Shown piece after piece: positions 1 to 64,000 of a stretch of 64,000 bases of DNA. A model generated the notes under the pieces. It searched no databases. It was not told where the DNA came from and worked only from the letters and a program-made list of their open reading frames with translations. Position 1 is the stretch's first letter. The number at the start of each line of letters is the position of its first letter. Location of the stretch: NCBI GenBank assembly GCA_963729445.1, contig CAVSNU010000005.1, forward strand, positions 769,615 to 833,614. Direction: 5' to 3'. Position numbers and translations under genes: made by a program. The stretch is from an uncultured Chloroflexia bacterium. GTDB taxonomy: Bacteria > Chloroflexota > Chloroflexia > Thermomicrobiales > CFX8.

Positions 1-822
1 CATCTCGGGTGTAACGACCGACCCCGTGCTGAGACCGATAAAGACATCCGCACCCTTGAGAATCTCCTCAAGCGAGCCGCGCCGGTGCTCCCGGTTCGTC
101 TCCTTGGCGAGATATGCCTTGGCCCAGTTCATACGATCCGGGCGACCGGCGTAAATGGCACCGGCACGGTCGCAAACCACGATGCGCTTGAAGCCTGCCC
201 GGTGGAGCAAGCGGGCGACGCCGATGCCGGCCACGCCTGCCCCGGCGATCACGACGCTGGTGTCGTCGATCCGGCGCTCGGTTACTTTGAGCGCGTTGAT
301 CAATCCCCCGAGCACGAGCACGGCGGTGCTGTGGTGCTGGTTGGAAAAGACGGGAATGTTACAGGCCTTTTCCAGATGGTCGGCAATCGTGAAGGCGCGT
401 GGTGTGCTGATGTCATCAAGACAGATCGCGCCGAACGTTGGCGTGAGGGCCGCGACGGTGTCGACGATGGCGAAAGGGTCAAGTTGGTCCAGGCAGATTG
501 GGAAGGCGTCGATCCCGGCGAAGGTCTTGAAGATGACGCTCTTGCTCTCGGCGATTGGTAAGGCGGCTTCGGGCGGACCGCCTGCACTGCCGAAGAGGTC
601 GGAGCCGTCAGTCACGATCGCGACCGTGTTGCCCCGTGATGTGAGGTCGAAGGCGCGCTCCGGACGCTTGACGATCTCCAGACAAGCTTCGGCGACACCG
701 GGTGTGTAGACAAGGCTTAAGATAGAGCGGTCCCGAATCGGAATTTTGCTCCCAACTCCAATGAGGCCATGGAATCGCCGACGGTAGTCAAGTCCTTCGT
801 CTCGTTGTTCGATAACGTACAC
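1..822 (-). CDS. NAD(P)-dependent malic enzyme, N-terminal ~274 codons (3' end runs off the window start)
   Basis: Absent from the ORF track because there is no stop in the window. Hand translation of the minus strand from GTG 822-820, preceded by GGAG, gives ..LSLVYTPGVAEACLEI..GNTVAIVTDGS..FAGIDAFPICLD..NIPVFSNQHHSTAVLVLGGLINAL..VVIAGAGVAGIGVARLL..GADVFIGLS. These are malic-enzyme and Rossmann motifs. Confidence 0.8.
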   Translation of the reverse strand, partial: MYVIEQRDEGLDYRRRFHGLIGVGSKIPIRDRSILSLVYTPGVAEACLEIVKRPERAFDLTSRGNTVAIVTDGSDLFGSAGGPPEAALPIAESKSVIFKTFAGIDAFPICLDQLDPFAIVDTVAALTPTFGAICLDDISTPRAFTIADHLEKACNIPVFSNQHHSTAVLVLGGLINALKVTERRIDDTSVVIAGAGVAGIGVARLLHRAGFKRIVVCDRAGAIYAGRPDRMNWAKAYLAKETNREHRRGSLEEILKGADVFIGLSTGSVVTPEM

Positions 823-992
823 GGATCTCCGCTTCTACATGTTTGCTGGATGGATCGCAACCATTTCTACAACCAGTGATTGTACGACCATGGCTGTAGC
901 TCGTCACCCTGAACCTTCAAGACCGTATTAAAGTCCCAGGCACATGGGCCTCGCATCGCACTGCTCTGGCGGGTTATGTCGAGCGAAACTGG

Positions 993-2540
993 CTAGGTCA
1001 CACCAATATCGACCCGATGATAGCCGGACGCGCCATCAGGGAGCGGGTCGGCGCTCTCTTCGGTCTGGGTCGTGCCCTCCCCGTCAATGGCGCGGACGCG
1101 TAGAGAAGAGGTACCCGCGGCCGGAGGCGTCCACTGGGAGCGCCAGATGACCCAACTCAACGGAGCTATCTGTTCGACGCGATCGACCGCTTGCCAGGTC
1201 TGGCCCCCGTCGGTGCTTACTTGAACCTCTCGGACGCCACGGTCTCCGGCAAAGGCGACGCCGCCGATCTCGACCGGTCCAGGTTCGACGATGGCCCGCT
1301 CGCCGGGGACGTCGAAGCGCGACATGGTCTTGATCGCTGCCTCTTCCGTCCAGCCGCGCTGTTGCCAGTAGCCGCGGAACGTCTCAACGAGCTCGATCCG
1401 GCGCAGCCACTTCCCGTTCTTGATCCCGTACTTGCCGGGCACAATCAGCCGCGCCGGGAATCCGTGCTTGTCGGGTAAGCGCTCGCCATTCAGCATGTAG
1501 GCGATAATCGTCGTGTGCTCGAGCGCCTTGGACAGAGGAAACGAATCGCTGTAGCCGTCGGTGCCGAAGAAGGCCAGCTTCTGCGCTTGCGGACGCACCC
1601 CGGTCAACGCCAGCACGTCAGAGAGTCTGACGCCTGTCCAGTGGCCATTGGAGATCAAATCGCCCCCGATCTCGTTCGAGATGCAGGTCAACGTCGCCGT
1701 TTGCTCGACCGCAGGCAGGCTGAGCAGCTGTTCGTAACTGACCGTTACCGGCCGCTCCACCAACCCTTTGATGTCGAGTGCCCAATTATCGAGGTCAACG
1801 TTGGGATCGATGAAGTTCTTCGAGACCGTATAGAACTCGGGGATCGGCGTCATTGGCGCCGGAATGTTGTTGCTGCCGCCGCCAATTACGCCGGAGCGTG
1901 CTGCGGCGACGAAACGGCCGAGATAGACGACCCCGGCCAGCGCAATGGCGGAGGCACCTAGCCAGCCCAGAAACTGACGACGATGGAGATTGGCCGGCGG
2001 CGCATCGGCTTGCACTTCGCGTGCCGCGAACCATGTGCCGCTGACAAGGGGGTATGTGAGGTGCATCACCAGCGAGAAGACCAGGAAATCAAGGAAGAGT
2101 GTCCAACCGATCGCGACGAGCTCCTGATTGCTCAACGCAACGCTGGTTCCAAATGAGGTGGCGATCAAGGCAAAGATCACCGTTGGCACCCAGAGCAAGA
2201 TCGTGAGCCCCAGGATGCGTCGAGCGCGTCGACGGGTGGACATCGACTCGCTTGGACTCCGCTCGAAACGCGCGACCAACGCGCCGGCCACGACGATGCC
2301 CACGATGACGGCCAGGAGCAGCACAGGTTTGGCGAAACCCTGTAACAGGCCGAGAAGCAGCGAGAAGAGCGAGATCGGCATGACCTGCAGCGTTGCACCG
2401 GCGACGAGCTCCACCAGCGATCGCGTTTCGCTGACATTGCGTAACAGCAGCATGAACACGACCATCGCCAGCCCGGCGATGGCGCCACTCATAGCCAGAA
2501 AACGTCGCGTTTGTTGAGGTGTGGGGTGCGTACCATTCAT
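993..2540 (-). CDS. Molybdopterin-dependent oxidoreductase (sulfite-oxidase/YedY-like fold) with an N-terminal polytopic membrane domain
   Basis: 515-aa ORF. The N-terminal ~190 aa are hydrophobic helices. The C-terminal part reads ..TLTCISNEIGGDLISNGHWTGVRLSDVL..GTDGYSDSFPL..MLNGERLPDKHGFPARLIVPGKYGIKNGKWLRRIELV..YWQQRGW, typical of the Mo-co oxidoreductase family. Confidence 0.85.
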   Translation of the reverse strand: MNGTHPTPQQTRRFLAMSGAIAGLAMVVFMLLLRNVSETRSLVELVAGATLQVMPISLFSLLLGLLQGFAKPVLLLAVIVGIVVAGALVARFERSPSESMSTRRRARRILGLTILLWVPTVIFALIATSFGTSVALSNQELVAIGWTLFLDFLVFSLVMHLTYPLVSGTWFAAREVQADAPPANLHRRQFLGWLGASAIALAGVVYLGRFVAAARSGVIGGGSNNIPAPMTPIPEFYTVSKNFIDPNVDLDNWALDIKGLVERPVTVSYEQLLSLPAVEQTATLTCISNEIGGDLISNGHWTGVRLSDVLALTGVRPQAQKLAFFGTDGYSDSFPLSKALEHTTIIAYMLNGERLPDKHGFPARLIVPGKYGIKNGKWLRRIELVETFRGYWQQRGWTEEAAIKTMSRFDVPGERAIVEPGPVEIGGVAFAGDRGVREVQVSTDGGQTWQAVDRVEQIAPLSWVIWRSQWTPPAAGTSSLRVRAIDGEGTTQTEESADPLPDGASGYHRVDIGVT

Positions 2541-2646
2541 GGTTGAATAGTCTCCAGTAGTTGAACGCAGGCTCCGGCAAGAGCGGGGGACGTCCCGCTC
2601 TCCTGTAGCATCGTTACTATGTATTACGGATCACCGGTTCATAAGG

Positions 2647-2678
2647 TTGACTGGCTATGCAGAGTGTACGTACACTCT
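2647..2678 (+). promoter_or_regulatory. Candidate promoter (TTGACT 2647-2652, 18-nt spacer, TACACT 2671-2676) overlapped by a perfect 18-bp palindrome AGAGTGTACGTACACTCT (2661-2678)
   Basis: Read directly from the sequence. The palindrome ends 8 nt before ATG 2686, so that start would be nearly leaderless. An alternative start is ATG 2719, preceded by GGAGAGAG. Confidence 0.35.
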
Positions 2679-2685
2679 ATAGCAG

Positions 2686-4402
2686 ATGCCTCATGATGCC
2701 GAACGACCGGAGAGAGATATGGCAGCGCTTCCCAGACCCGTCAGCGACGCACCCTACCCGCTGAGCTCGAAACCGCCGGTCATCAAGCTGCTCACCAGCG
2801 AATCGGCCAGTAATCCGTTCGCCCTGACGATCGCGGCGGCCTGGTCGTGCTACGGTTCGCGGCCGGCCAAGGTTGAGAATGTCCTGAAACTGATGGATCC
2901 CAGCCTGGACGGCGGAGACGAGCTGCGTCCGGCGCGCCGTTCACGAGCCGAGCGTCTGTACCGTGACCTATTCGAGGCGGGTCACCACACGACCTTCCAG
3001 CACGCGAATTTTGTATTCGTACTAGATGGTGTTTCGCGCCTGGCGATCTGGTCCTTTTTCCACCATCACCCGCACTACAATTCGGAGCAAGTGAGCCAGA
3101 GATACCGCGAAGTGTCGGGGAAAGTGATGGTCACACCCGACCTGACTGACCGGCAGGAGGCCGTCTATCGCGCGGCGATGGAGCGCGCCCTCCAGGGGTA
3201 TCGCAACCTCAACGACCTGCTGACGCCGGACGTTACCGCTCGCTACAGCGCCGTCTTCCCGGCACGGGCCAAAGCGAAGGGGGCCGATGCTGAGGAGCGA
3301 CTCGCGTCAGCCGTTCAGAAGAAGACGCAGGAAGTGGCTCGTTATGTCCTGCCATTGGGGACTCCTGCCCACCTCTACCACACGATCAACGGACTCACGC
3401 TGCTGCGCTACTACGTGCTGGCAAACCAGCTCGATGTGCCCGCCGAGGTGCGCTACATCGTGAACCAGATGGTGGCGGAGGTGCTGAAGGTTGACCCGAA
3501 TTTCCTGGGCGGGCCACAGTTCCCGCTGGATCTGCAGATTCTCGGGATGCCGGACACGCTTGAGTACGAGGTCCTGGCAAACCTGCAGGATGCCATCCAA
3601 CAAGACCCGGGCGAGAGCATTCTTCGAGGAGTTCGACGCACAGCTGAACGGCCTCGATTCGCGGCTGGCGAGCTACGACCCGCAGTCCGAGCGCGTGCTG
3701 GCCGACGCCGTGCGCGCGGTGCTTGGGAAGTCCGCTGACGAGCTACCGGACGGCGCGGCGTTGGCGGCCGTCCTCGACCCAGCCCAGAACCACTACCTCG
3801 GGCACCCGCTCTTCCTGGCGATGAACAGCAAGTTGATGCAGACGCTGACGCATGTGAGCTTCACGTTCCAGAAGCGCATCAGCGGTGCTGAGGAAGCGCA
3901 GAACCAGCGCCACCGAGGCACGCTCTCCTCGAGCCCGATTCTCTCCGCGCATCTGCGGCGTGACCCGGATGTGATCGTGCCCTACGACGTGCAGCGCAGC
4001 GAGGCCGCCCTTGAGGAGTATCACGCGACCGTGCAGGCGCTCTGGGACGCCAAGAACATGCTCCTGGACGATGGTGTTGAGCCGGAGAAAGTCCTCTATC
4101 TGCTGCCGAACAGTCACCACGTGCGCTTCTACGAGACAGGCACACTGCTGAGCTACTACTGGAAGTGGGTCAAACGGCTCTGCTTCAACGCCCAGCGCGA
4201 GATCTTCGACTCCGCGTACCAGGAAACCCAGCAGGTCAGCCGTGTGCTGCCGGAGATCGGCACCTACATCAGCCGCCCGCCGTGCGTCGTGCGCTCGGTC
4301 GCCGGTACCAAGCCGTTCTGTCCGGAGGGCGAGCGCTACTGCGGGATTCCTGTCTGGCGCGACTACTCACCGGACACCATTGTGCTGCGGCGAGTGCTCT
4401 AG
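2686..4402 (+). pseudogene. Two-domain ThyX-like (FAD-dependent thymidylate synthase family) gene, interrupted by a +1 frame change near 3610-3618
   Basis: ORF 2686..3738 carries ..GHHTTFQHANFVFVLDGVSR..HHHPHYNSEQVSQRYRE... ORF 3491..4402 in the next frame carries ..FTFQKRISGAEEAQNQRHRGTLSSS..YYWKWVKRLCFNAQREI... The sensible sequence switches frame between ..LANLQDAIQQDPGE and AFFEEFDAQLNG. Removing one base around 'gagAgca' (~3616) joins them. Confidence 0.6.
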
Positions 4403-4429
4403 AGCGACATATCCCTCACTCATGAGCTC

Positions 4430-4467
4430 ACAACGCCCCGGCCCGATCGAACGGGCCGGGGCGTTGT
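4430..4467 (+). terminator. Hairpin with a perfect 16-bp stem (ACAACGCCCCGGCCCG / CGGGCCGGGGCGTTGT) and a 6-nt loop, downstream of the ThyX-like gene
   Basis: Read from the sequence 28 nt after the stop codon at 4402. There is no clear U-tract. Confidence 0.6.
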
Positions 4468-4686
4468 GTGGATGACCGTGACGGGAGACGGGATCGATGC
4501 GACGCGCCGGACGCCGGATTCCTGCTGCCGTCGATCGAGTATCCAGAGAGTCAAGAAGAGAAGCGCTCATCCCCCGATCCGTGCTGCAAAATGGCCTTGT
4601 GCTCGATATGATTATAAGTAGTGTGCGAGATGTCCCCGCTGCTACTCCACCTCTAGCGTTTCATCATCAACGGAGGGAGTCGAGTC

Positions 4687-5274
4687 ATGGCGAACAAGGC
4701 CGTCGTCGTTATTGACATGCTCAACGATTTCGTAACCGGGGCGTTGGCGAATCCCAGAAGCCAGGCAATCACCCCGAACATTGCCGACTTGCTGCGTGAG
4801 GCACGCGAACGCGGTTGGCTGGTGGTCTATGGCAATGACGCTCACCTGCCTGGTGATCCTGAGGAAAGAGTCTGGGGCGCGCATGCCCTCGCCGGCACCC
4901 CGGGTGCTGACGTCATCCCCGAGCTTGCGCCACAGCAGGGCGATTTCGTGCTGCCGAAGCGGTTCTACAGCTCGTTCTATGAGACCGGATTGAGCTCGCT
5001 GTTACGTCAATACGACGTCGGCGAGGTGATCCTGACCGGCCAGCACACCAATATCTGCGTGCGGCACACGGCCTCAGACGCCTTCAACAGCGGTTTTGCG
5101 ATTACCGTGCCGCGCGACGCCGTGGCGATGTTCGAACAGCCCGGCATGAGTGACCAGGAGTACGAGCAACTCCAGGAAGAGGCCCTCACCTACCTGACAA
5201 ATGTGTATGGCGCGCAGATCACGACCGCTCGTGAGATTGCTGAGCGTGCTGTTCCCGAAACAGCCCACCCTTAG
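4687..5274 (+). CDS. Isochorismatase-family cysteine hydrolase (nicotinamidase-like)
   Basis: 195 aa with a GGAGGGAG RBS upstream. Contains ..AVVVIDMLNDF..GNDAH..KRFYSSFYETGL..LTGQHTNICVRHTASDA.. (catalytic Asp/Lys/Cys pattern). Confidence 0.85.
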   Translation: MANKAVVVIDMLNDFVTGALANPRSQAITPNIADLLREARERGWLVVYGNDAHLPGDPEERVWGAHALAGTPGADVIPELAPQQGDFVLPKRFYSSFYETGLSSLLRQYDVGEVILTGQHTNICVRHTASDAFNSGFAITVPRDAVAMFEQPGMSDQEYEQLQEEALTYLTNVYGAQITTAREIAERAVPETAHP

Positions 5275-5401
5275 CAGCTGCGCTCGCATTGGACCGCGAT
5301 AGAGGTCCGCTCGTATGCGTGGTGCCTGTAGAGACAGATGGTACGATGATTCCATTGGGACCCTGGCCAATTTTGGCGCGGAGCGAGGGAGAAGAACCAA
5401 C

Positions 5402-5848
5402 ATGGAATTTAGCGGCGAAGAAATGATCAAGGCACCACGCGAAGCTGTTTGGGCCTTCCTGATGGACCCTCACAGAGTGACCGAGTGTGCGCCCGGGCTC
5501 CAGAGTGTCGAGGTAATCGACGAGCGTCACTTCAAGGCCACGGTACGTGCCGGCGTTGGCATGATCAAAGGCACCTTCAATTTCGACATCGAGTGGCAGA
5601 ACATTGTCGAGCCAAGTCACGCCGAGATGGTCGCCAAGGGCAACGCCGCGGGCTCAGCCGTGGAGCTGCAGAGTACCATGGATCTCGACGAAGATGCCGA
5701 AGGAACGTTGATGAAGTGGTCGGCGAACGTGCGGGTGAGTGGCAAGCTGGCCGGTGTCGGTGGCCGGTTGATGAACCCGGTCGCCGACCGCATGATCAAG
5801 GATATCTTTGGCTGTATTCGTTCAAAACTCGAAGTCGCGAATGCGTAG
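5402..5848 (+). CDS. SRPBCC-fold protein, CoxG-like (carbon monoxide dehydrogenase subunit G family)
   Basis: Internal start MEFSGEEMIKAPREAVWAFLMDP..VSGKLAGVGGRLMNPVADRMIKDIF.. within ORF 5315..5848. Confidence 0.7.
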   Translation: MEFSGEEMIKAPREAVWAFLMDPHRVTECAPGLQSVEVIDERHFKATVRAGVGMIKGTFNFDIEWQNIVEPSHAEMVAKGNAAGSAVELQSTMDLDEDAEGTLMKWSANVRVSGKLAGVGGRLMNPVADRMIKDIFGCIRSKLEVANA

Positions 5849-5877
5849 GCTCCAGTGCCGCCGGTGAGTATCAGAAC

Positions 5878-5905
5878 GGGCCGGTGCTTCTGCCGGCCCT
5901 TTTCT
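5878..5905 (+). terminator. Rho-independent terminator: GGGCCGG/CCGGCCC stem, 8-nt loop, then a TTTTCT tract
   Basis: Read from the sequence 30 nt after the stop at 5848. Confidence 0.7.
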
Positions 5906-6108
5906 GTGCTCATGGACGACAACCCGACGGGTGAAAAGTCCACTCGGGTGGATCCTCGCCTGCTTCCCCTGTGCGCACACGTTGCCCTGTAAGGCGAGGA
6001 TTATGTCGCCTTGTGATCTTGCGCTACTGCCGTCAGTCGCAGTATGGTACCCGCGGCCCCAATGACCGCAGCGACAGCCGGAGCCTGATTCCCTGTAAGG
6101 AGCGATAG

Positions 6109-7221
6109 ATGACTGGAATGCCACCGGTTCAACCCCGTTCCAGGGAGATGGAGATCGTGCGGGTGCTGTTCGATCGGCATCTGCTGGATCGCGCCGTTCA
6201 TCTCGCCGAGGCGCGCTGGGCTGGCTCCGGCGAGGTGGTCCAGTTAGCCTATGCCTGGCCCGAGCTTGAGCCGAGCGAGCGACGCCAGCGTCTTGAAGAG
6301 ATCGGGCCTCAAAAGCTCGCGCAGTTCCGTGCATTCGCGGATCTCCATCCGGAGCTGGCCCAGGTCATCGACACGCTCGAGGCTCAGGGTGCCCTTGCTC
6401 CAGAGTCCGAGCTCGTCGAAGTAACACCTGATTCCGTCTCCTCCGAACCGGTGAAACCAGAGCCGGCTGTCTCTGACGAGGGGGCCGGCCTGCCGGATCC
6501 CGAGCTGTCCACCGGTTTCGAGGAGCGGGACCTCGCCCAGGCACCCGAATTAACCGAGACCGAGCTCCCGTTGTTAGAGAGCGTCGCTACGGACGTTGTG
6601 GACCTGCACGAGGAGATTACCGACTTTGCGGTAGTCGCACAGGAGCGACGCGCCGAGCAGCTGGCGACGGGTGCGGAGACGCTTGAACGCGTGCGCGCAC
6701 GACTCGATGCAGCCGCGCGCCGGATCTCCCCTGCCCCGCTGCTCGGAAGCCTGTCAGCGAGCCAGTCGGGTTCTCGCTTGACGGCGCCCACTCATTCCAC
6801 GCCTGTCACGGCGTCGCCCGCTGCCGAGGTCGGCGAGGGGCGCTTCACGCCCCCGCCTGCGTACTGGCTCAACCGGCTCAGAGAAGAGCAGGTCGTCGTC
6901 GCGGACGGGCGTGCTCTGCCGCCGTCAGACGACGAGTTGGTGGCGCTGGCGAACGAGCTGGGTCTTGGGTTGGCCGAGTTCATGCTTGAGCCCGGCACCA
7001 CACGGGCCGTGTTTGGTGGGCTGGTGCGCAACGGGACCGTGGTTGAGGCGTCAGCCGGACCCCTTCCAAGCGCGTTGGCGGGCCACATGCTGGTGGTGGT
7101 ACGAGGCAGGCTGTTCGCGAAGCAGCTTGAGAGGCTGCGCCGTGGAACGTGCGACATACCGGGCACGAAGGCGACCGTGCGGTTGAGCCCTGCGAGCAAG
7201 CTGGTCGTCATTCCGCAGTAA
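6109..7221 (+). CDS. Hypothetical protein, acidic and Pro/Glu-rich in the middle; no family recognised
   Basis: Longest ORF, and its codon third-position GC bias fits the + frame. The overlapping minus ORFs are Ser/Arg/Ala-rich shadows. The start could be 6109 or 6148 (MEIVRVLF). Confidence 0.5.
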   Translation: MTGMPPVQPRSREMEIVRVLFDRHLLDRAVHLAEARWAGSGEVVQLAYAWPELEPSERRQRLEEIGPQKLAQFRAFADLHPELAQVIDTLEAQGALAPESELVEVTPDSVSSEPVKPEPAVSDEGAGLPDPELSTGFEERDLAQAPELTETELPLLESVATDVVDLHEEITDFAVVAQERRAEQLATGAETLERVRARLDAAARRISPAPLLGSLSASQSGSRLTAPTHSTPVTASPAAEVGEGRFTPPPAYWLNRLREEQVVVADGRALPPSDDELVALANELGLGLAEFMLEPGTTRAVFGGLVRNGTVVEASAGPLPSALAGHMLVVVRGRLFAKQLERLRRGTCDIPGTKATVRLSPASKLVVIPQ

Positions 7222-7240
7222 CGCGAACGCGCGCAAAAAG

Positions 7241-7266
7241 ACGCGGGGCCGAATCGGTCCCCGCGT
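7241..7266. terminator. Hairpin ACGCGGGG..CCCCGCGT flanked by CAAAAAG and GTGTGTT; a second hairpin GTGACAT-agca-ATGTCAC followed by TTTTT lies at ~7281-7305
   Basis: Read from the sequence downstream of the stop at 7221. Confidence 0.5.
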
Positions 7267-7640
7267 GTGTTCGCTGTTAGTGTGTGACATAGCAATGTCA
7301 CTTTTTCGCCGGCAATGCTGCCGGTATCCATCTGCAGTATTCAATTTATGTTGTTTGCTGGCCGTTGAGCGCTGAGGGGCGATCCGTTTCCGAACCTATC
7401 TTGGCAAGCCAGTGTTCGTCTTCTGAGGTGGATGCCAGAATCAGACGCGCGGCCGCGATTTAGCCTCAAGGAGTGGGCAGCGAACCCAGAGCGAGTGGGA
7501 ACTGCCCATTGCGCCACGATACCGTGTCACTCGCCCAACCTCCTCTCACATGAATCGCTCGACTGACTACGACTCAATGATATCGATGACAATTAGCAAG
7601 TGCAAGATCGTACATTTTGTCACAATCGTTATGTCACCTA

Positions 7641-9017
7641 CTAGCTCAACAACGCTTCTTCTTGCATGAGCGCCAGTGTTCTGCTGAAGGCATTCACGGT
7701 CAGATCGATATCCTCCTGGGAGTGCGCGATGGAGGTGATGCCCCGGCTGTTGAAGAGCGCTACCCCTTCGAGCAGCATGCCGACATTTAACGCGGTGGCC
7801 AACGGGCCGGACGTAGCTTCGCGGCCAGCGGGAGCGCCCTCAATCGGCCGGACCAGGTCGCTAGCCGGCGGGAGCTCGTCTCCGCCGAGAGCAACCCGGA
7901 ACATCGAGGCCGCTCCATACACGCAGCCCGGCACTTGTGCATCCCGCAAGGCGGCGTTCATGCCGGTGCGAATCGCCGCAGCCGAGGCGTTTGCCCGTTG
8001 CTGGGTCTCGGGATCGGCGACGAGGCCCATGCAGGCCACGCCTGCGGCGGCTGAGAGTGGGTTGGCGTTGTACGTGCCTGGGTGGACGATCTTGGCTCGT
8101 CCGCCCCGCGCCTCGGGATCGAAGGAGAGCGTGTCGATGATGTCGCCGCGACCGACAACCGCACCTCCGGGCAAGCCGCCTGCGAGGATTTTCGCCAGGG
8201 AGGTTATGTCACCATGAGCTCCGTAGTACTCCTGGGCACCGCCCGGCGCCCAACGGAATCCACTGACGACCTCATCCACGATCAGGAGGGTGCCGGTCTT
8301 TTCGGTAGCCTCACGCAGGAATTGCAAGTAGGCTGCAGGGTCGTCAAGCGTAAAGAAGCTCGGGTGGCTGGTTTCGATGATGACCGCGGCGACTGTCTCA
8401 TCGCGTAACCGCTCTTCCACCTGTGCGTAGTCGCCGCACGGCAGGACGGTCGCGAGTGACTGCAGGGCGATGGGGAGCCCGGGCGAGCCCTGCCCGCCGA
8501 AGGCGCTGTCGCTCCAGCCGTGAAAATGGGTCGCGAACTGGATGAGGTGCGTCCGTCCGGTGAAGTTGCGAGCCAGCCGGATGGCGAGCATGACCGCCTC
8601 GGTGCCCGAGGAGGTGAAGCGTACTTTCTCTGCGCCGGGCACGATCTCGCAGACTCGCTCGGCCCACTCAAGCTCAAGGACGCTGTTGCCGCCCAGATGG
8701 GTACCGAGCTGGAGCTGAGTCTGGACGGCATCGATGACGGCCGGGTGATTGTGGCCGAGGATGAGCGACCCGTGGCCCGTGACGTAATCGACATAACGAT
8801 TACCATCGGCGTCCCACTTGTAGGCGCCCTCGGCGCGGGTGACGCACAGGTTGAACGGGTCGAGGTGCCGACTGTCGTGCGTGATCCCGCCCGGTAACCG
8901 GGTTACGGCGCGCTCGATGTGCGCGGCGGACGCGGGGTGGCGCTGGATGTAGTTGGCGAGAATGGAGCTTTGCTGGACGGCCCGGCTAATTTCCTGTTGT
9001 GTCTGGCGTGAGAGCAT
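7641..9017 (-). CDS. Class-III (PLP) aminotransferase, glutamate-1-semialdehyde aminomutase-like
   Basis: ..DYVTGHGSLILGHNHPAV..FTSSGTEAVMLAIRLAR..LIVDEVVSGFR..SLAKILAGGLPGGAV... Start chosen at ATG 9017 because AGGAGG lies just upstream. The ORF itself extends to 9065. Confidence 0.85.
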   Translation of the reverse strand: MLSRQTQQEISRAVQQSSILANYIQRHPASAAHIERAVTRLPGGITHDSRHLDPFNLCVTRAEGAYKWDADGNRYVDYVTGHGSLILGHNHPAVIDAVQTQLQLGTHLGGNSVLELEWAERVCEIVPGAEKVRFTSSGTEAVMLAIRLARNFTGRTHLIQFATHFHGWSDSAFGGQGSPGLPIALQSLATVLPCGDYAQVEERLRDETVAAVIIETSHPSFFTLDDPAAYLQFLREATEKTGTLLIVDEVVSGFRWAPGGAQEYYGAHGDITSLAKILAGGLPGGAVVGRGDIIDTLSFDPEARGGRAKIVHPGTYNANPLSAAAGVACMGLVADPETQQRANASAAAIRTGMNAALRDAQVPGCVYGAASMFRVALGGDELPPASDLVRPIEGAPAGREATSGPLATALNVGMLLEGVALFNSRGITSIAHSQEDIDLTVNAFSRTLALMQEEALLS

Positions 9018-61969: not shown

Positions 61970-62001
61970 GCGTACGGGCGCAATGAATTACGCCCGTACG
62001 C
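61970..62001. terminator. Hairpin with a perfect 11-bp stem (GCGTACGGGCG / CGCCCGTACGC) and a 10-nt loop
   Basis: Read from the sequence 27 nt after the stop at 61943. Flanked by A-rich sequence on the + strand and T-rich sequence on the - strand. Confidence 0.55.
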
Positions 62002-62091
62002 AGAAAAAGGGCCGGTCTCAATTCGGTTCCCTGATCAAGCTGGATATTTCCCTAATCAGGCTCCTCCGAAGAACGAGCGGCGAGACGAACG

Positions 62092-62259
62092 TTACGAGAT
62101 AGACTCTTCGTAGCGCCTGGCGACGCCCTGGGTAATGCGGTCGATGACGATCGCGAGGGCGACGATACAGAAACCCGCCTCAGCGCCGCATACAGGGCGG
62201 AGCGGTGAATCATACACGAATGTCGCCTATGCACCAATACCCATCGAGGTAACCACTGC
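62092..62259 (-). pseudogene. 3'-terminal stump of a glycine-betaine/proline-type ABC permease (ProW/OpuAB-like) with an internal TAG
   Basis: Hand translation: AVVTSMGIGA*ATFVYDSPLRPVCGAEAGFCIVALAIVIDRITQGVARRYEESIS*. The ..G..IV.LAI.LDRITQ.. ending is typical of that permease family. Only ~55 codons remain. Confidence 0.5.
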
Positions 62260-62262
62260 CAG

Positions 62263-62919
62263 CTATAAGGGCTTCATCGATTCAGCAATGATCATTAACT
62301 CGAGCTCGCTACTAAGAAGTTGTGTCCGCAGATGCTGGACTCTTATTAACGTCCACGTTGTATCTCTCTCAAACATTATCTCATGAACGTGACCAGTCTC
62401 CCATCGTACCTTCATGTTTCCAGAGTTGTCTTCCCGTGCTACCCAGCCCCCGTTTACTACGTAGCCAGGATATCCATTCACCGCGATCTCGTGATGAAAA
62501 CCTTCCTTGACCATTGGATGTCCTGCATTGGAGAATTGAAGTACGCGGATCGTATCTCGGAGATTTTCACCGGGCCCCTTGTAGGTTAGTTGGGATGTCG
62601 CCGCTCCCCACGCCACTGCCTCCGTCAGTTCAAAGTCATCCGGTATATGCGTGGGAACGTGAAGGGTACCAATTTTCTGCTTTACATCCTCAAGTGTCAT
62701 ACGCGGACCTGCAGCCTGTTGTCGCGACGCTTTGGTCTGCCGATGTCCACGCTGGTCGACGAAGGGCAGTTCGTTGTCCTCGGATAGTGGTCGCAACTGG
62801 ATTAGTTGATGTCCAACCATAATAGATAACCATCCTTCAACGTCTATATACGCAAAGAGGTATAATAACCCGTCAATTGCAGCAATCAGAACAGGCACTA
62901 CCGGCGCCAGGATCTGCAC
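62263..62919 (-). CDS. DUF4367-like protein with an N-terminal hydrophobic anchor
   Basis: ..HVPTHIPDDFELTEAVAWG..YKGPGEN..IRVLQFS..IAVNGYPGYVVNG..VRWETGHVHEIMFERD..ELELMIIAESMKPL* follows the remembered DUF4367 pattern (P-x-G-F .. W .. eLi.iAeSl). The start is uncertain (62919 or 62821). Confidence 0.55.
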   Translation of the reverse strand: MQILAPVVPVLIAAIDGLLYLFAYIDVEGWLSIMVGHQLIQLRPLSEDNELPFVDQRGHRQTKASRQQAAGPRMTLEDVKQKIGTLHVPTHIPDDFELTEAVAWGAATSQLTYKGPGENLRDTIRVLQFSNAGHPMVKEGFHHEIAVNGYPGYVVNGGWVAREDNSGNMKVRWETGHVHEIMFERDTTWTLIRVQHLRTQLLSSELELMIIAESMKPL

Positions 62920-63292
62920 AGCAATGCCAATCTAGGTAGTAGCAGTAGTTGGCGCCGTCTTGGCAACACGCAGGTGGATAATCACACATCGAGTTACAAC
63001 ATGTGCTGTGAGTGCCGTCTGCTACAAAGTAGGAACCGAAACAAGTACCATATGGCCGGTCATCTGGACATTCCCCATGAGGGCCGCCACAGATGTCATC
63101 GGACCTGCAGCCCATCAGCCAATCGGTAAAGTAGTAACATTGGCAGCTACCCGGAAAACACGTACTCGCGGAAGCACTTGAGCCAAAAAGTTGCCCACTG
63201 GCCTGTGGAGGCAGAAACTTAGAGGCGACCGTCGCGACCCCTGCGGCTATCGAGCCTCGAATCAGGCTCCTCCTCGTAGTCGGCTTCCGCAT
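62873..63292 (-). CDS. Twin-arginine-signal, cysteine-rich secreted protein (18 Cys in ~105 mature residues); no family recognised
   Basis: MRKPTTRRSLIRGSIAAGVATVASKFLPPQASG | ..STCFPGSCQCYYFTDWLMGC..TCCNSMCDYPPACCQDGANYCYYLDWHCCADPGAGSACSDCCN. GGAAGGAAGAG RBS upstream. Confidence 0.6.
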   Translation of the reverse strand: MRKPTTRRSLIRGSIAAGVATVASKFLPPQASGQLFGSSASASTCFPGSCQCYYFTDWLMGCRSDDICGGPHGECPDDRPYGTCFGSYFVADGTHSTCCNSMCDYPPACCQDGANYCYYLDWHCCADPGAGSACSDCCN

Positions 63293-63334
63293 GACGATCG
63301 CTCTTCCTTCCTAGCCCAGTAGGCTCTACTCCAA

Positions 63335-63868
63335 CTAATTCGACATCCTAGGTTTCACCGAAACCGCTGCGAGACGCAAGCTAGCTGCAATGGCAAGCAT
63401 TGACAAAGTCGCTGCAATAGTGGCACCAACGGAAGGCACTGCCGCAAATAGCTGAAAGATTGATGGTGCTTCGCCCCCGACCACCACCAGAAGCGCCGCT
63501 AGCGCTAACAGAATTGCATCCCTGACCAAAGTGGGCCATCCCACACGTTCTCGATAAAGAAGGCCAAAACAGCTACACGACAGATTCTGCTTACGCGCTA
63601 TCACTAGCAAAATAGCGACAATAAAGCTTAGGGTCATGAGGACGACGAGAAATGCCCCAACTCTCACTTGGACCCCTGAAAGGAGTAGGAGAGCAGAAGT
63701 TGCTTCAATGAAAGGTAGGGCCCACCCGTAGGCTTTAGCGAAAGGGGGAGCCAAAATGCGGTAATTGACAACGTTGTTGGCAAACGTGTGCAAAGAGACA
63801 AACTTCCCGCTTGCAGAAATAAAAAAGATGCTTCCGATAACTACTCGAATGGCTACTTCAAGCAGCAT
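63335..63868 (-). CDS. MauE/DoxX-family redox-associated membrane protein
   Basis: Start at MLLEVAIRVVIGSIFFISASGKF (ATG 63868, AGGAGG 6 nt upstream). Four to five TM segments and the motif ..NLSCSCFG.., remembered as typical of MauE-like proteins. The ORF extends to 63976. Confidence 0.65.
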   Translation of the reverse strand: MLLEVAIRVVIGSIFFISASGKFVSLHTFANNVVNYRILAPPFAKAYGWALPFIEATSALLLLSGVQVRVGAFLVVLMTLSFIVAILLVIARKQNLSCSCFGLLYRERVGWPTLVRDAILLALAALLVVVGGEAPSIFQLFAAVPSVGATIAATLSMLAIAASLRLAAVSVKPRMSN

Positions 63869-63945
63869 TCCAGTCCTCCTGTGGTCTATCTTCGGCCGAC
63901 TGTGAACGCTCCAAGCAAAGACAGTGCAAGAGCGCTTCGATGACC

Positions 63946-63980
63946 ATAATTGTATATAGAGCTTATGACTGTACAATCAT
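63946..63980 (-). promoter_or_regulatory. Candidate promoter on the minus strand (TTGTAC, 16 nt, TACAAT) embedded in inverted repeat ATAATTGTA-n17-TACAATCAT
   Basis: Read from the sequence: -35 = revcomp of 63971-63976, -10 = revcomp of 63949-63954. AT-rich, about 70 nt upstream of the MauE-like start. Confidence 0.3.
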
Positions 63981-64000
63981 TATACTCTACTAGGCCAAAT

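Follow-up and report, generated by a model that had tools for sequence, protein, structure and literature searches.

Enzymes of the MauE family and their substrates are the closest described counterparts of the locus considered here. MauE proteins from two phyla can replace DsbB in Escherichia coli; their CxC motif, which is essential, is followed by a conserved F-G, and a conserved lysine in helix 1 and glutamate in helix 2 line the predicted quinone site (bioRxiv 10.64898/2026.03.05.709764, March 2026). The same preprint reports that the six disulfides of methylamine dehydrogenase require MauE together with MauD, and it presents MauE as a generalist that works through a DsbA-type partner and is also active outside mau clusters; the published assays worked via E. 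coli DsbA. Here we describe a 64,000-nucleotide (nt) stretch of DNA from an uncultured Chloroflexia bacterium (assembly GCA_963729445.1, contig CAVSNU010000005.1, positions 769,615 to 833,614; hereafter the window) in which a MauE-family gene is followed directly by an open reading frame (ORF) for a cysteine-rich protein with a twin-arginine leader. On balance we judge it probable that this ORF encodes the precursor of an exported protein of ~97 residues with about nine structural disulfides, and that the MauE encoded next to it serves this protein as a dedicated generator of disulfides. To our knowledge, MauE has no known natural client besides MauA, the light chain of methylamine dehydrogenase; the gene described here would be a dedicated client outside mau clusters, drawn from an undescribed and largely unannotated family.

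The cysteine-rich gene, as defined by ORF and translation, occupies 62873..63292 on the reverse strand and encodes 139 amino acids (aa) plus stop. The frame is intact and a Shine-Dalgarno-like sequence 5' of it (GGAAGGAAGAG) provides a good ribosome-binding site. A first-pass annotation, made from the sequence alone, had drawn attention to 18 cysteines, four CC doublets and two tryptophans that each follow an aspartate, and translation bears out this count. Every cysteine lies between residues 45 and 138, with the doublets at 98/99 (TCC), 109/110 (ACC), 124/125 (HCC) and 137/138 (DCC), while the tryptophans are W58 in FTDW (63119..63121) and W122 in YLDW (62927..62929). The predicted leader (63167..63292, reverse strand; 42 residues) runs from T-R-R-S-L-I-R, with its RR at 63269..63274, through a Gly/Ala/Ser-rich hydrophobic stretch, K25, F-L-P-P (63206..63217) and a linker to A40-S-A42, after which a signal-peptidase cut is predicted. 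The remaining 97 aa (62876..63166, reverse strand), the predicted mature domain, hold all 18 cysteines and are net acidic, with 12 Asp and Glu, 2 Arg and no Lys, as well as 8 Tyr and 5 Phe. A density of 18 cysteines in 97 residues is far beyond background, whereas the four doublets are close to what random placement gives (18 Cys in 97 positions: mean 3.15, P(>=4)=0.39); what lends the doublets meaning is solely that relatives keep them at the same positions. An aspartate before both tryptophans has a probability of about 0.012 when the predicted mature part is shuffled. Structure prediction failed twice, with a pLDDT of 33.5 in AlphaFold2 from a three-sequence alignment and of 37.9 for the mature domain alone.

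Relatives were located by synteny, by reading the contigs of the closest MauE homologues for Cys-rich twin-arginine ORFs. Such ORFs stand directly after MauE in five other loci, given here by working number, and are 32-48% identical to the window protein: L009 (586-999; 48% identical), L003 (5578-6000), L008 (789-1268), L001/L002 (1625-2128; more divergent) and L004/L005, in which the gene is frameshifted. A second subfamily is represented by ORFs in L015 (482-928) and L006 (4805-5197) and by two ORFs in L007. Between the window gene and that of L009, pN is 0.36 and pS 0.74, and 36 of the 64 identical residues are specified by different codons. Because amino acids have been kept while synonymous sites are saturated, the gene is real and under purifying selection, and the frame, treated as coding in the first-pass annotation, is borne out as such. 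In L004 (993..1060) and L005 a 1-nt frameshift follows '...GCSY' in both assemblies, and L005 has an additional 1-nt indel 20 nt past the shared one; these lesions reflect either a decaying copy or an assembly error.

Most of these relatives had been left uncalled by gene callers or called in the wrong frame. The whole protein found no match by phmmer among 5.8 billion clusters, the mature domain returned a single spurious NHL-repeat match from 1.84 billion representatives, and a profile built on four relatives retrieved nothing beyond two called fragments that were already known. Pattern and tblastn scans of genome and metagenome contigs, two of each, also gave no match; these scans are insensitive, since L009, which comes from a JGI metagenome, was missed by them. 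Sequence and profile searches of Pfam, NCBIfam and the PDB (E<=10) yielded nothing but a sub-threshold Tat signal, and so no metallothionein, bacteriocin, granulin or keratin-like family; homology to a metallothionein, bacteriocin or keratin-like repeat family would have run counter to the earlier reading. None of the three genes of the cassette, in any start variant, is among the public gene calls of the source contig (1.35 Mb, NCBI/ENA), and a collection of 15 billion proteins contains no variant of them, though other genes of the same contig are present. A 68-aa ORF on the forward strand (62383..62589), antisense inside the third gene of the cassette, does stand in the public calls. The low-GC cassette thus seems to have been miscalled in public annotation, which would account for its absence from the protein collection, the spurious antisense ORF having been recorded instead. 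More generally, protein-level searches of billions of sequences come back empty because gene callers skip family members or call the wrong strand; most of the family is missing from public protein sets, an annotation blind spot.

The leader is the part of the protein that is shared most widely. All eight family members carry the RR pair, in keeping with the Tat-type leader noted earlier, and the offset from RR to F[LVM]PP is exactly 18 residues in all eight. A40 and A42 are invariant in a three-sequence alignment, and an AxA-like motif lies 2-6 residues ahead of the first cysteine in every member. These leader motifs are common to the window subfamily and to the second subfamily (L015, L006, L007), whereas the Cys-rich cores of the second subfamily cannot be aligned with the window protein and the wider family has no common cysteine spacing. 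When pooled, identity reaches 47% in the leader against 22% at non-Cys mature positions, and mature domains throughout the family are acidic and almost free of lysine. Within the window subfamily the cysteine framework, including the four CC doublets, is kept in the five relatives apart from losses that come in pairs: L004 lacks exactly C45 and C99, and L003 exactly C50 and C117. Counts of cysteines after FxPP (18, 18, 16, 16, 18, 16, 14 and 8) are even in all eight members. Even counts and paired losses together point to disulfides, and C45-C99 and C50-C117 can be put forward as two predicted bonds.

An alignment of homologues, proposed earlier as a check on which cysteines and tryptophans are invariant, gave a divided answer for the tryptophans. 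W58 is retained in all five relatives along with the cysteine framework, and position 122 reads W/Y/W/W/Y, so that W122 is replaceable by tyrosine. The aspartates do not follow suit, the residue before W58 being D/R/G/G/G and that before position 122 D/A/G/S/T, and the mature part of L015 has no tryptophan. The D-W motif, which is literally present in the window protein, is therefore incidental, because its aspartate is not conserved and W122 is tyrosine in two of the five.

The MauE gene (63335..63868, reverse strand; 177 aa from ATG 63868) ends 42 nt upstream of the cysteine-rich gene on the same strand. It was identified by its match to Pfam MauE (PF07291; E 4.8e-26, 92 bits against a cut-off of 27). 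The longest form of the ORF begins with a TTG at 63976; ATG 63868, with AGGAGG 5 nt upstream, is most likely the start. The active site reads C98-S-C100-F101-G, and an alignment of eight sequences (P. denitrificans MauE, six relatives and the window protein) shows no variation at K22, E55, C98, C100 or F101; these are the active-site and quinone-site residues named in the preprint (bioRxiv 10.64898/2026.03.05.709764). Among relatives of the window MauE that carry names, the closest belong to metagenome bins with the labels Desulfobacterales, Chloroflexota and SAR202. The window shows only ~130 nt upstream of this gene, and at its edge a TATAAT hexamer lies at 63979..63984 (reverse strand), ~110 nt ahead of ATG 63868; a -35 element, if there is one, would fall past position 64000.

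The tie between the two genes, suspected from the window alone in the first-pass annotation, is upheld by its recurrence: at least eight further loci pair MauE with a Cys-rich ORF, and two gene orders occur. MauE, the Cys-rich gene, a gene for a DUF4367-like protein and one for an LVIVD beta-propeller follow one another in L001, L002, L003 and L008, and the same order without the propeller is found in L004 and also in L009, where the contig is too short beyond this point. In L015, L006 and L007 the Cys-rich and DUF4367-like genes, in that order, precede MauE. The propeller is ~377 aa long in L001, L003 and L008 and is a lipoprotein in L001 and L003; it is absent from the window, L004, L006, L007 and L015. 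In the cassettes that are completely visible (L001, L002, L003, L008 and L015), Pfam lists and ORF reading reveal no MNIO (DUF692) or DUF2063 gene, and likewise no MauG, MauD, MauB, amicyanin, flavoprotein or radical SAM gene is found there. At one chromosomal site (mfd, amt, glnB), L006 has a single DUF4367-like plus MauE module (4805..6567) and L007 has four in tandem (1894..8564). Uncalled Cys-rich twin-arginine ORFs lie between the L007 modules, one of them split by a frameshift (4647-4814 and 4693-5085), and their place in the first module is taken by a protein of 256 aa that has a signal peptide, 6 Cys and 12 Trp.

Taken together, these features suggest the following course. The precursor is made with its 42-residue twin-arginine leader, as read from the sequence, and would be exported in reduced form, probably by the Tat pathway. 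On the external side of the membrane, the co-transcribed MauE would use its CxC loop to oxidize pairs of cysteines and would pass the electrons to membrane quinone, a step we infer from the active-site residues and from the published complementation of DsbB by MauE; oxidation could be direct or could proceed via a thioredoxin-fold partner encoded elsewhere. Removal of the leader after A-S-A would release an acidic, lysine-free, aromatic-rich and disulfide-knotted mini-protein, whose site of action may be extracellular, with the DUF4367-like protein and, where sister loci encode it, the LVIVD beta-propeller lipoprotein as partners. A leader far better conserved than the non-Cys core, and cores that cannot be aligned, suggest a secreted effector or binding protein that is diversifying, and not an enzyme cofactor carrier; this pattern, with the tandem expansion and the island-like composition, hints at such an effector as a secondary hypothesis.

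Several observations weigh against this course of events. The cassette has no thioredoxin-fold partner of the DsbA or MauD type. The Tat profile scores fall below the curated cut-offs (Pfam, 14.9 against 22.7 bits; TIGR01409, 13.7 against 16.7 bits), and the hydrophobic stretch and the predicted A-x-A are at least 14 residues apart, an unusually long distance. The product of the third gene, if started at Met34, has no evident signal or membrane anchor, unlike its relatives in L006, L007 and L015. The final biological role of the cysteine-rich protein is a guess. Lastly, Tat normally carries folded or cofactor-loaded proteins, and the proposed course gives no reason for a Tat leader on a protein that would be oxidized after export, though MauA shows the same combination.

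It was this last property that had led the first-pass annotation to argue from Tat export away from a purely disulfide-bonded protein and toward a metal cluster, a thioether or a quinone-type cofactor, and the evidence does not support that inference. Cysteine counts are even in all eight members and losses are paired; spacing varies across the wider family and the neighboring gene belongs to a family that generates disulfides (bioRxiv 10.64898/2026.03.05.709764); and no gene for cofactor maturation (MauG, radical SAM, flavoprotein or MNIO) is present in any fully visible cassette. MauA itself, in which the P. denitrificans sequence shows an SRR leader, is a precedent for a leader of twin-arginine type on a protein with six disulfides (bioRxiv 10.64898/2026.03.05.709764). 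Of the two specific forms that a cofactor reading may take, a Tat-exported protein that binds Fe-S, Cu or Zn on thiolates after loading in the cytoplasm would explain the leader, Tat being the usual route for cofactor-loaded proteins, and would suit the very high cysteine content and the His and Asp near several cysteines. DoxX/MauE-type genes also sit in the clusters of bufferins, which are copper-binding peptides (PMC12452194), and the window MauE has a weak NCBIfam likeness to HvfX (E 0.013, far below cut-off). We nevertheless give this reading a low probability: parity and paired losses fit disulfides, there is no ferredoxin-type CxxCxxCxxxCP, DUF2282 or metallothionein match, spacing is not conserved across subfamilies, complete cassettes lack MNIO and DUF2063, and a thiol-oxidase partner would destroy thiolate ligands. 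We consider it very unlikely that the protein serves a methylamine-dehydrogenase-like quinoprotein as small subunit, with a TTQ- or CTQ-like tryptophan cross-link and the LVIVD propeller as heavy chain. The parts do parallel a mau cluster (a long Tat-type leader, a disulfide-rich subunit of ~10 kDa, MauE and a propeller of ~377 aa), W58 is invariant in five relatives, and hhalign of the whole protein against six MauA/AauA sequences gives P=9e-6. The hhalign signal, however, comes from the leader: restricted to the mature domain it drops to P=0.19, a score also reached by 68 of 200 column shuffles; no member matches Pfam Me-amine-dh_L at E<=10, W122 is tyrosine in two of five relatives and the mature part of L015 has no tryptophan, MauG, MauD, amicyanin, flavoprotein and radical SAM genes are missing from every complete cassette, and the propeller is absent from five loci, the window among them. 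A narrower version, in which the window subfamily would supply the small subunit of an undescribed cell-surface quinoprotein, W58 forming with an invariant cysteine a self-processed or MauE-assisted CTQ-like cross-link and LVIVD serving as large subunit without MauG, we hold to be highly improbable; were it true, it would mean a mau-like enzyme assembled from unrelated parts and without MauG.

A bacteriocin- or toxin-like secreted peptide, with MauE as dedicated oxidase, the part that BdbB plays for sublancin, and the DUF4367-like protein in immunity or handling, would refine the disulfide interpretation and not contradict it, and among the alternatives we treat it as unlikely but deserving of some weight. 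It is in line with the excess of leader over core identity, with cores that cannot be aligned between subfamilies sharing one leader, with four tandem modules in L007 against one in L006 at the same site, with the low-GC composition of the cassette in the window and in L003, and with a sub-threshold excisionase-like helix-turn-helix (HTH) ORF upstream in L001. The export, processing and immunity genes typical of bacteriocin clusters are lacking, however; the mature domain, at ~97 aa and strongly acidic, is unlike most cationic antimicrobial peptides, and activity of this kind would be a supposition from sequence. There remains the possibility that the ORF has no function, being a frame open by chance or what is left of a decaying gene on a foreign island; in its favor one might cite the lack of the cassette genes in the 15-billion-protein collection, the frameshifts in the L004/L005 copies and the missing LVIVD gene of the window. 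This we find barely credible, given that the window ORF is intact and has a good ribosome-binding site, that six loci keep the cysteine framework and leader despite saturation at synonymous sites, and that the gap in the collection is accounted for by miscalling, with the antisense 68-aa ORF on record.

The third gene of the operon (62263..62820, reverse strand) encodes a Cys-free, DUF4367-related protein of 185 aa if read from ATG 62820. Its longest form starts with a GTG at 62919 and overlaps the cysteine-rich gene by 47 nt, an overlap reported in the first-pass annotation and arithmetically right. The overlap is probably not real, because homologues begin at the equivalent of Met34, that is, at ATG 62820, 52 nt past the stop of the cysteine-rich gene and with a Shine-Dalgarno-like GAAGGA upstream. 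The longest form (additional part 62820..62919) adds 33 residues, among them a hydrophobic run (ILAPVVPVLIAAIDGLLYLFAYI) that might anchor the protein in a membrane; N-terminal anchors are found in the relatives of L006, L007 and L015, but the close relatives of L003, L008 and L001 have no room for one. Pfam DUF4367 is matched by two of nine members (best E 2.6e-5), and a PDB profile search gave weak, chance-level matches only. DUF4367 is known to occur alongside LolA-like proteins, B. subtilis SsdC being one example (10.1101/2025.01.13.632879).

Composition sets the cassette apart from its surroundings. G+C falls sharply at ~62000, from 62.8% (window positions 1-61900) to 51.5% (62000-64000), and the cassette of L003 (5001..7819) has 53.8% between flanks of ~64%; such islands of low G+C in two genomes of high G+C suggest that the cassette has moved horizontally. 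In L001 the ORF upstream of the cassette (69..278, forward strand) matches HTH_17, of excisionase type, below threshold (22.6 against 27 bits), which fits a mobile context. A scan for terminator-like structures found a stem-loop of 14 pairs, 9 of them G-C, at 61970..62001, near the drop in G+C and between the cassette and a convergent gene for a 1153-aa membrane protein; it is likely a bidirectional terminator. A locally G+C-rich 41-aa ORF at 62095..62217 (reverse strand) resembles, by eye, the C-terminal end of an ABC-transporter permease ('...FCIVALAIVIDRITQG...') and may be what remains of a gene that the island interrupted; Pfam lends the permease likeness no support.

Comparison with other cysteine-containing secreted products helps to place the family. 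In granulins and the conotoxin superfamilies, CC doublets occur in which each cysteine is paired with a distant partner, and a conserved signal precedes a hypervariable core on a fixed framework. The likeness of the window protein to these is one of design only, and its pattern differs (CC-x3-C-x5-CC-x6-C-x6-CC-x8-C-x2-CC). The sublancin operon of the Bacillus subtilis prophage SPbeta carries its own DsbB-like BdbB along with BdbA, a glycosyltransferase and an ABC exporter, for a product with 2 disulfides. That system shares with the present one a secreted disulfide-containing peptide in a cluster with a dedicated membrane disulfide oxidase, and differs in using DsbB and not MauE, a Sec/ABC-transporter leader and not Tat, and 2 disulfides against ~9. 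Bufferins and other MNIO-modified peptides are also exported Cys-containing small proteins encoded beside a membrane protein of the DoxX/MauE superfamily (PMC12452194, PMC11626156). Bufferin-type clusters need MNIO and DUF2063 genes (PMC12452194), and their products have a Sec leader and thiooxazoles, whereas both genes are absent from every complete cassette of the present family and the leader is of Tat type; the parity of the cysteines argues for disulfides and not for bufferin-type thiooxazoles, and the protein shows neither a DUF2282 match in Pfam nor the EGKCG repeat.

MauA offers the closer parallel. It too is a small exported, disulfide-packed protein with a long twin-arginine leader, encoded downstream of the MauE that its maturation needs. 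The leaders are alike in detail, having in both cases an RR, a hydrophobic stretch that ends in LLP (or FLPP) 18 residues later, a linker and AxA, and the P. denitrificans sequence has an SRR leader of twin-arginine type. In the mature domain no sequence relationship is detectable. MauA has 12 cysteines and one doublet against 16-18 cysteines and four CC doublets in the Cys-rich family, which has no match for the two TTQ tryptophans. The comparison set comprised six sequences (P. denitrificans, P. aeruginosa AauA, Novosphingobium, Burkholderia and two from Thermomicrobium roseum). A MauA homology proposed by eye ('SYLIAYRDCC' against 'SYFVADGTHSTCC' and 'CDYWRHC' against 'FTDWLMGC') was rejected on the mature-domain hhalign result given above, and the whole-length score was set aside as generic leader similarity. 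Six members gave no Pfam match to MauA/Me-amine-dh_L at E<=10 and the PDB profile search was empty; the propeller of the sister loci is LVIVD and not Me-amine-dh_H. Membership in the MauA family is thus unsupported, because the mature domains are unmatched and complete cassettes lack MauG, MauD, MauB and amicyanin. The gene order has a precedent in mau clusters, P. denitrificans having mauE-mauD-mauA and mauD immediately preceding the light-chain gene in two other clusters. Content differs: where mau clusters have MauD, MauG, MauB and amicyanin the Cys-rich cassette has a conserved DUF4367-like third partner. By analogy, the Cys-rich/MauE system may nonetheless work as the MauE-MauA pair does. 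One further locus (L014, Thermomicrobium roseum plasmid NC_011961.1) has two divergent MauA-like light-chain genes, at 717..1169 and ~5900..6312 (the second unannotated). Near them are three hypothetical proteins of 400-456 aa that match nothing in Pfam, a MauE fusion protein of 596 aa, a protein weakly like Redoxin and a sigma factor of ECF type; the locus may be an unusual mau-like system in Thermomicrobia.

Set beside the MauE proteins of the preprint (bioRxiv 10.64898/2026.03.05.709764), the window enzyme has the same CxC-F-G and the same conserved lysine and glutamate, and a role outside mau clusters fits its locus. It departs from the generalist model in appearing hard-wired to one hyper-Cys-rich client gene in a cassette without a thioredoxin-fold gene, and the tandem array of L007 repeats MauE once per client. 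If our reading is right, the locus supplies a natural, hard-wired MauE client with about nine disulfides in 97 residues and no thioredoxin-fold intermediary in the cassette, and it adds two elements to what is described for MauE, an F-x-P-P motif kept strictly at 18 residues past RR and a DUF4367-like partner conserved along with the client. Such a system would make approachable the direct oxidation of a substrate by MauE, the presence of Tat leaders on disulfide-rich proteins, and the recognition of the leader motif.

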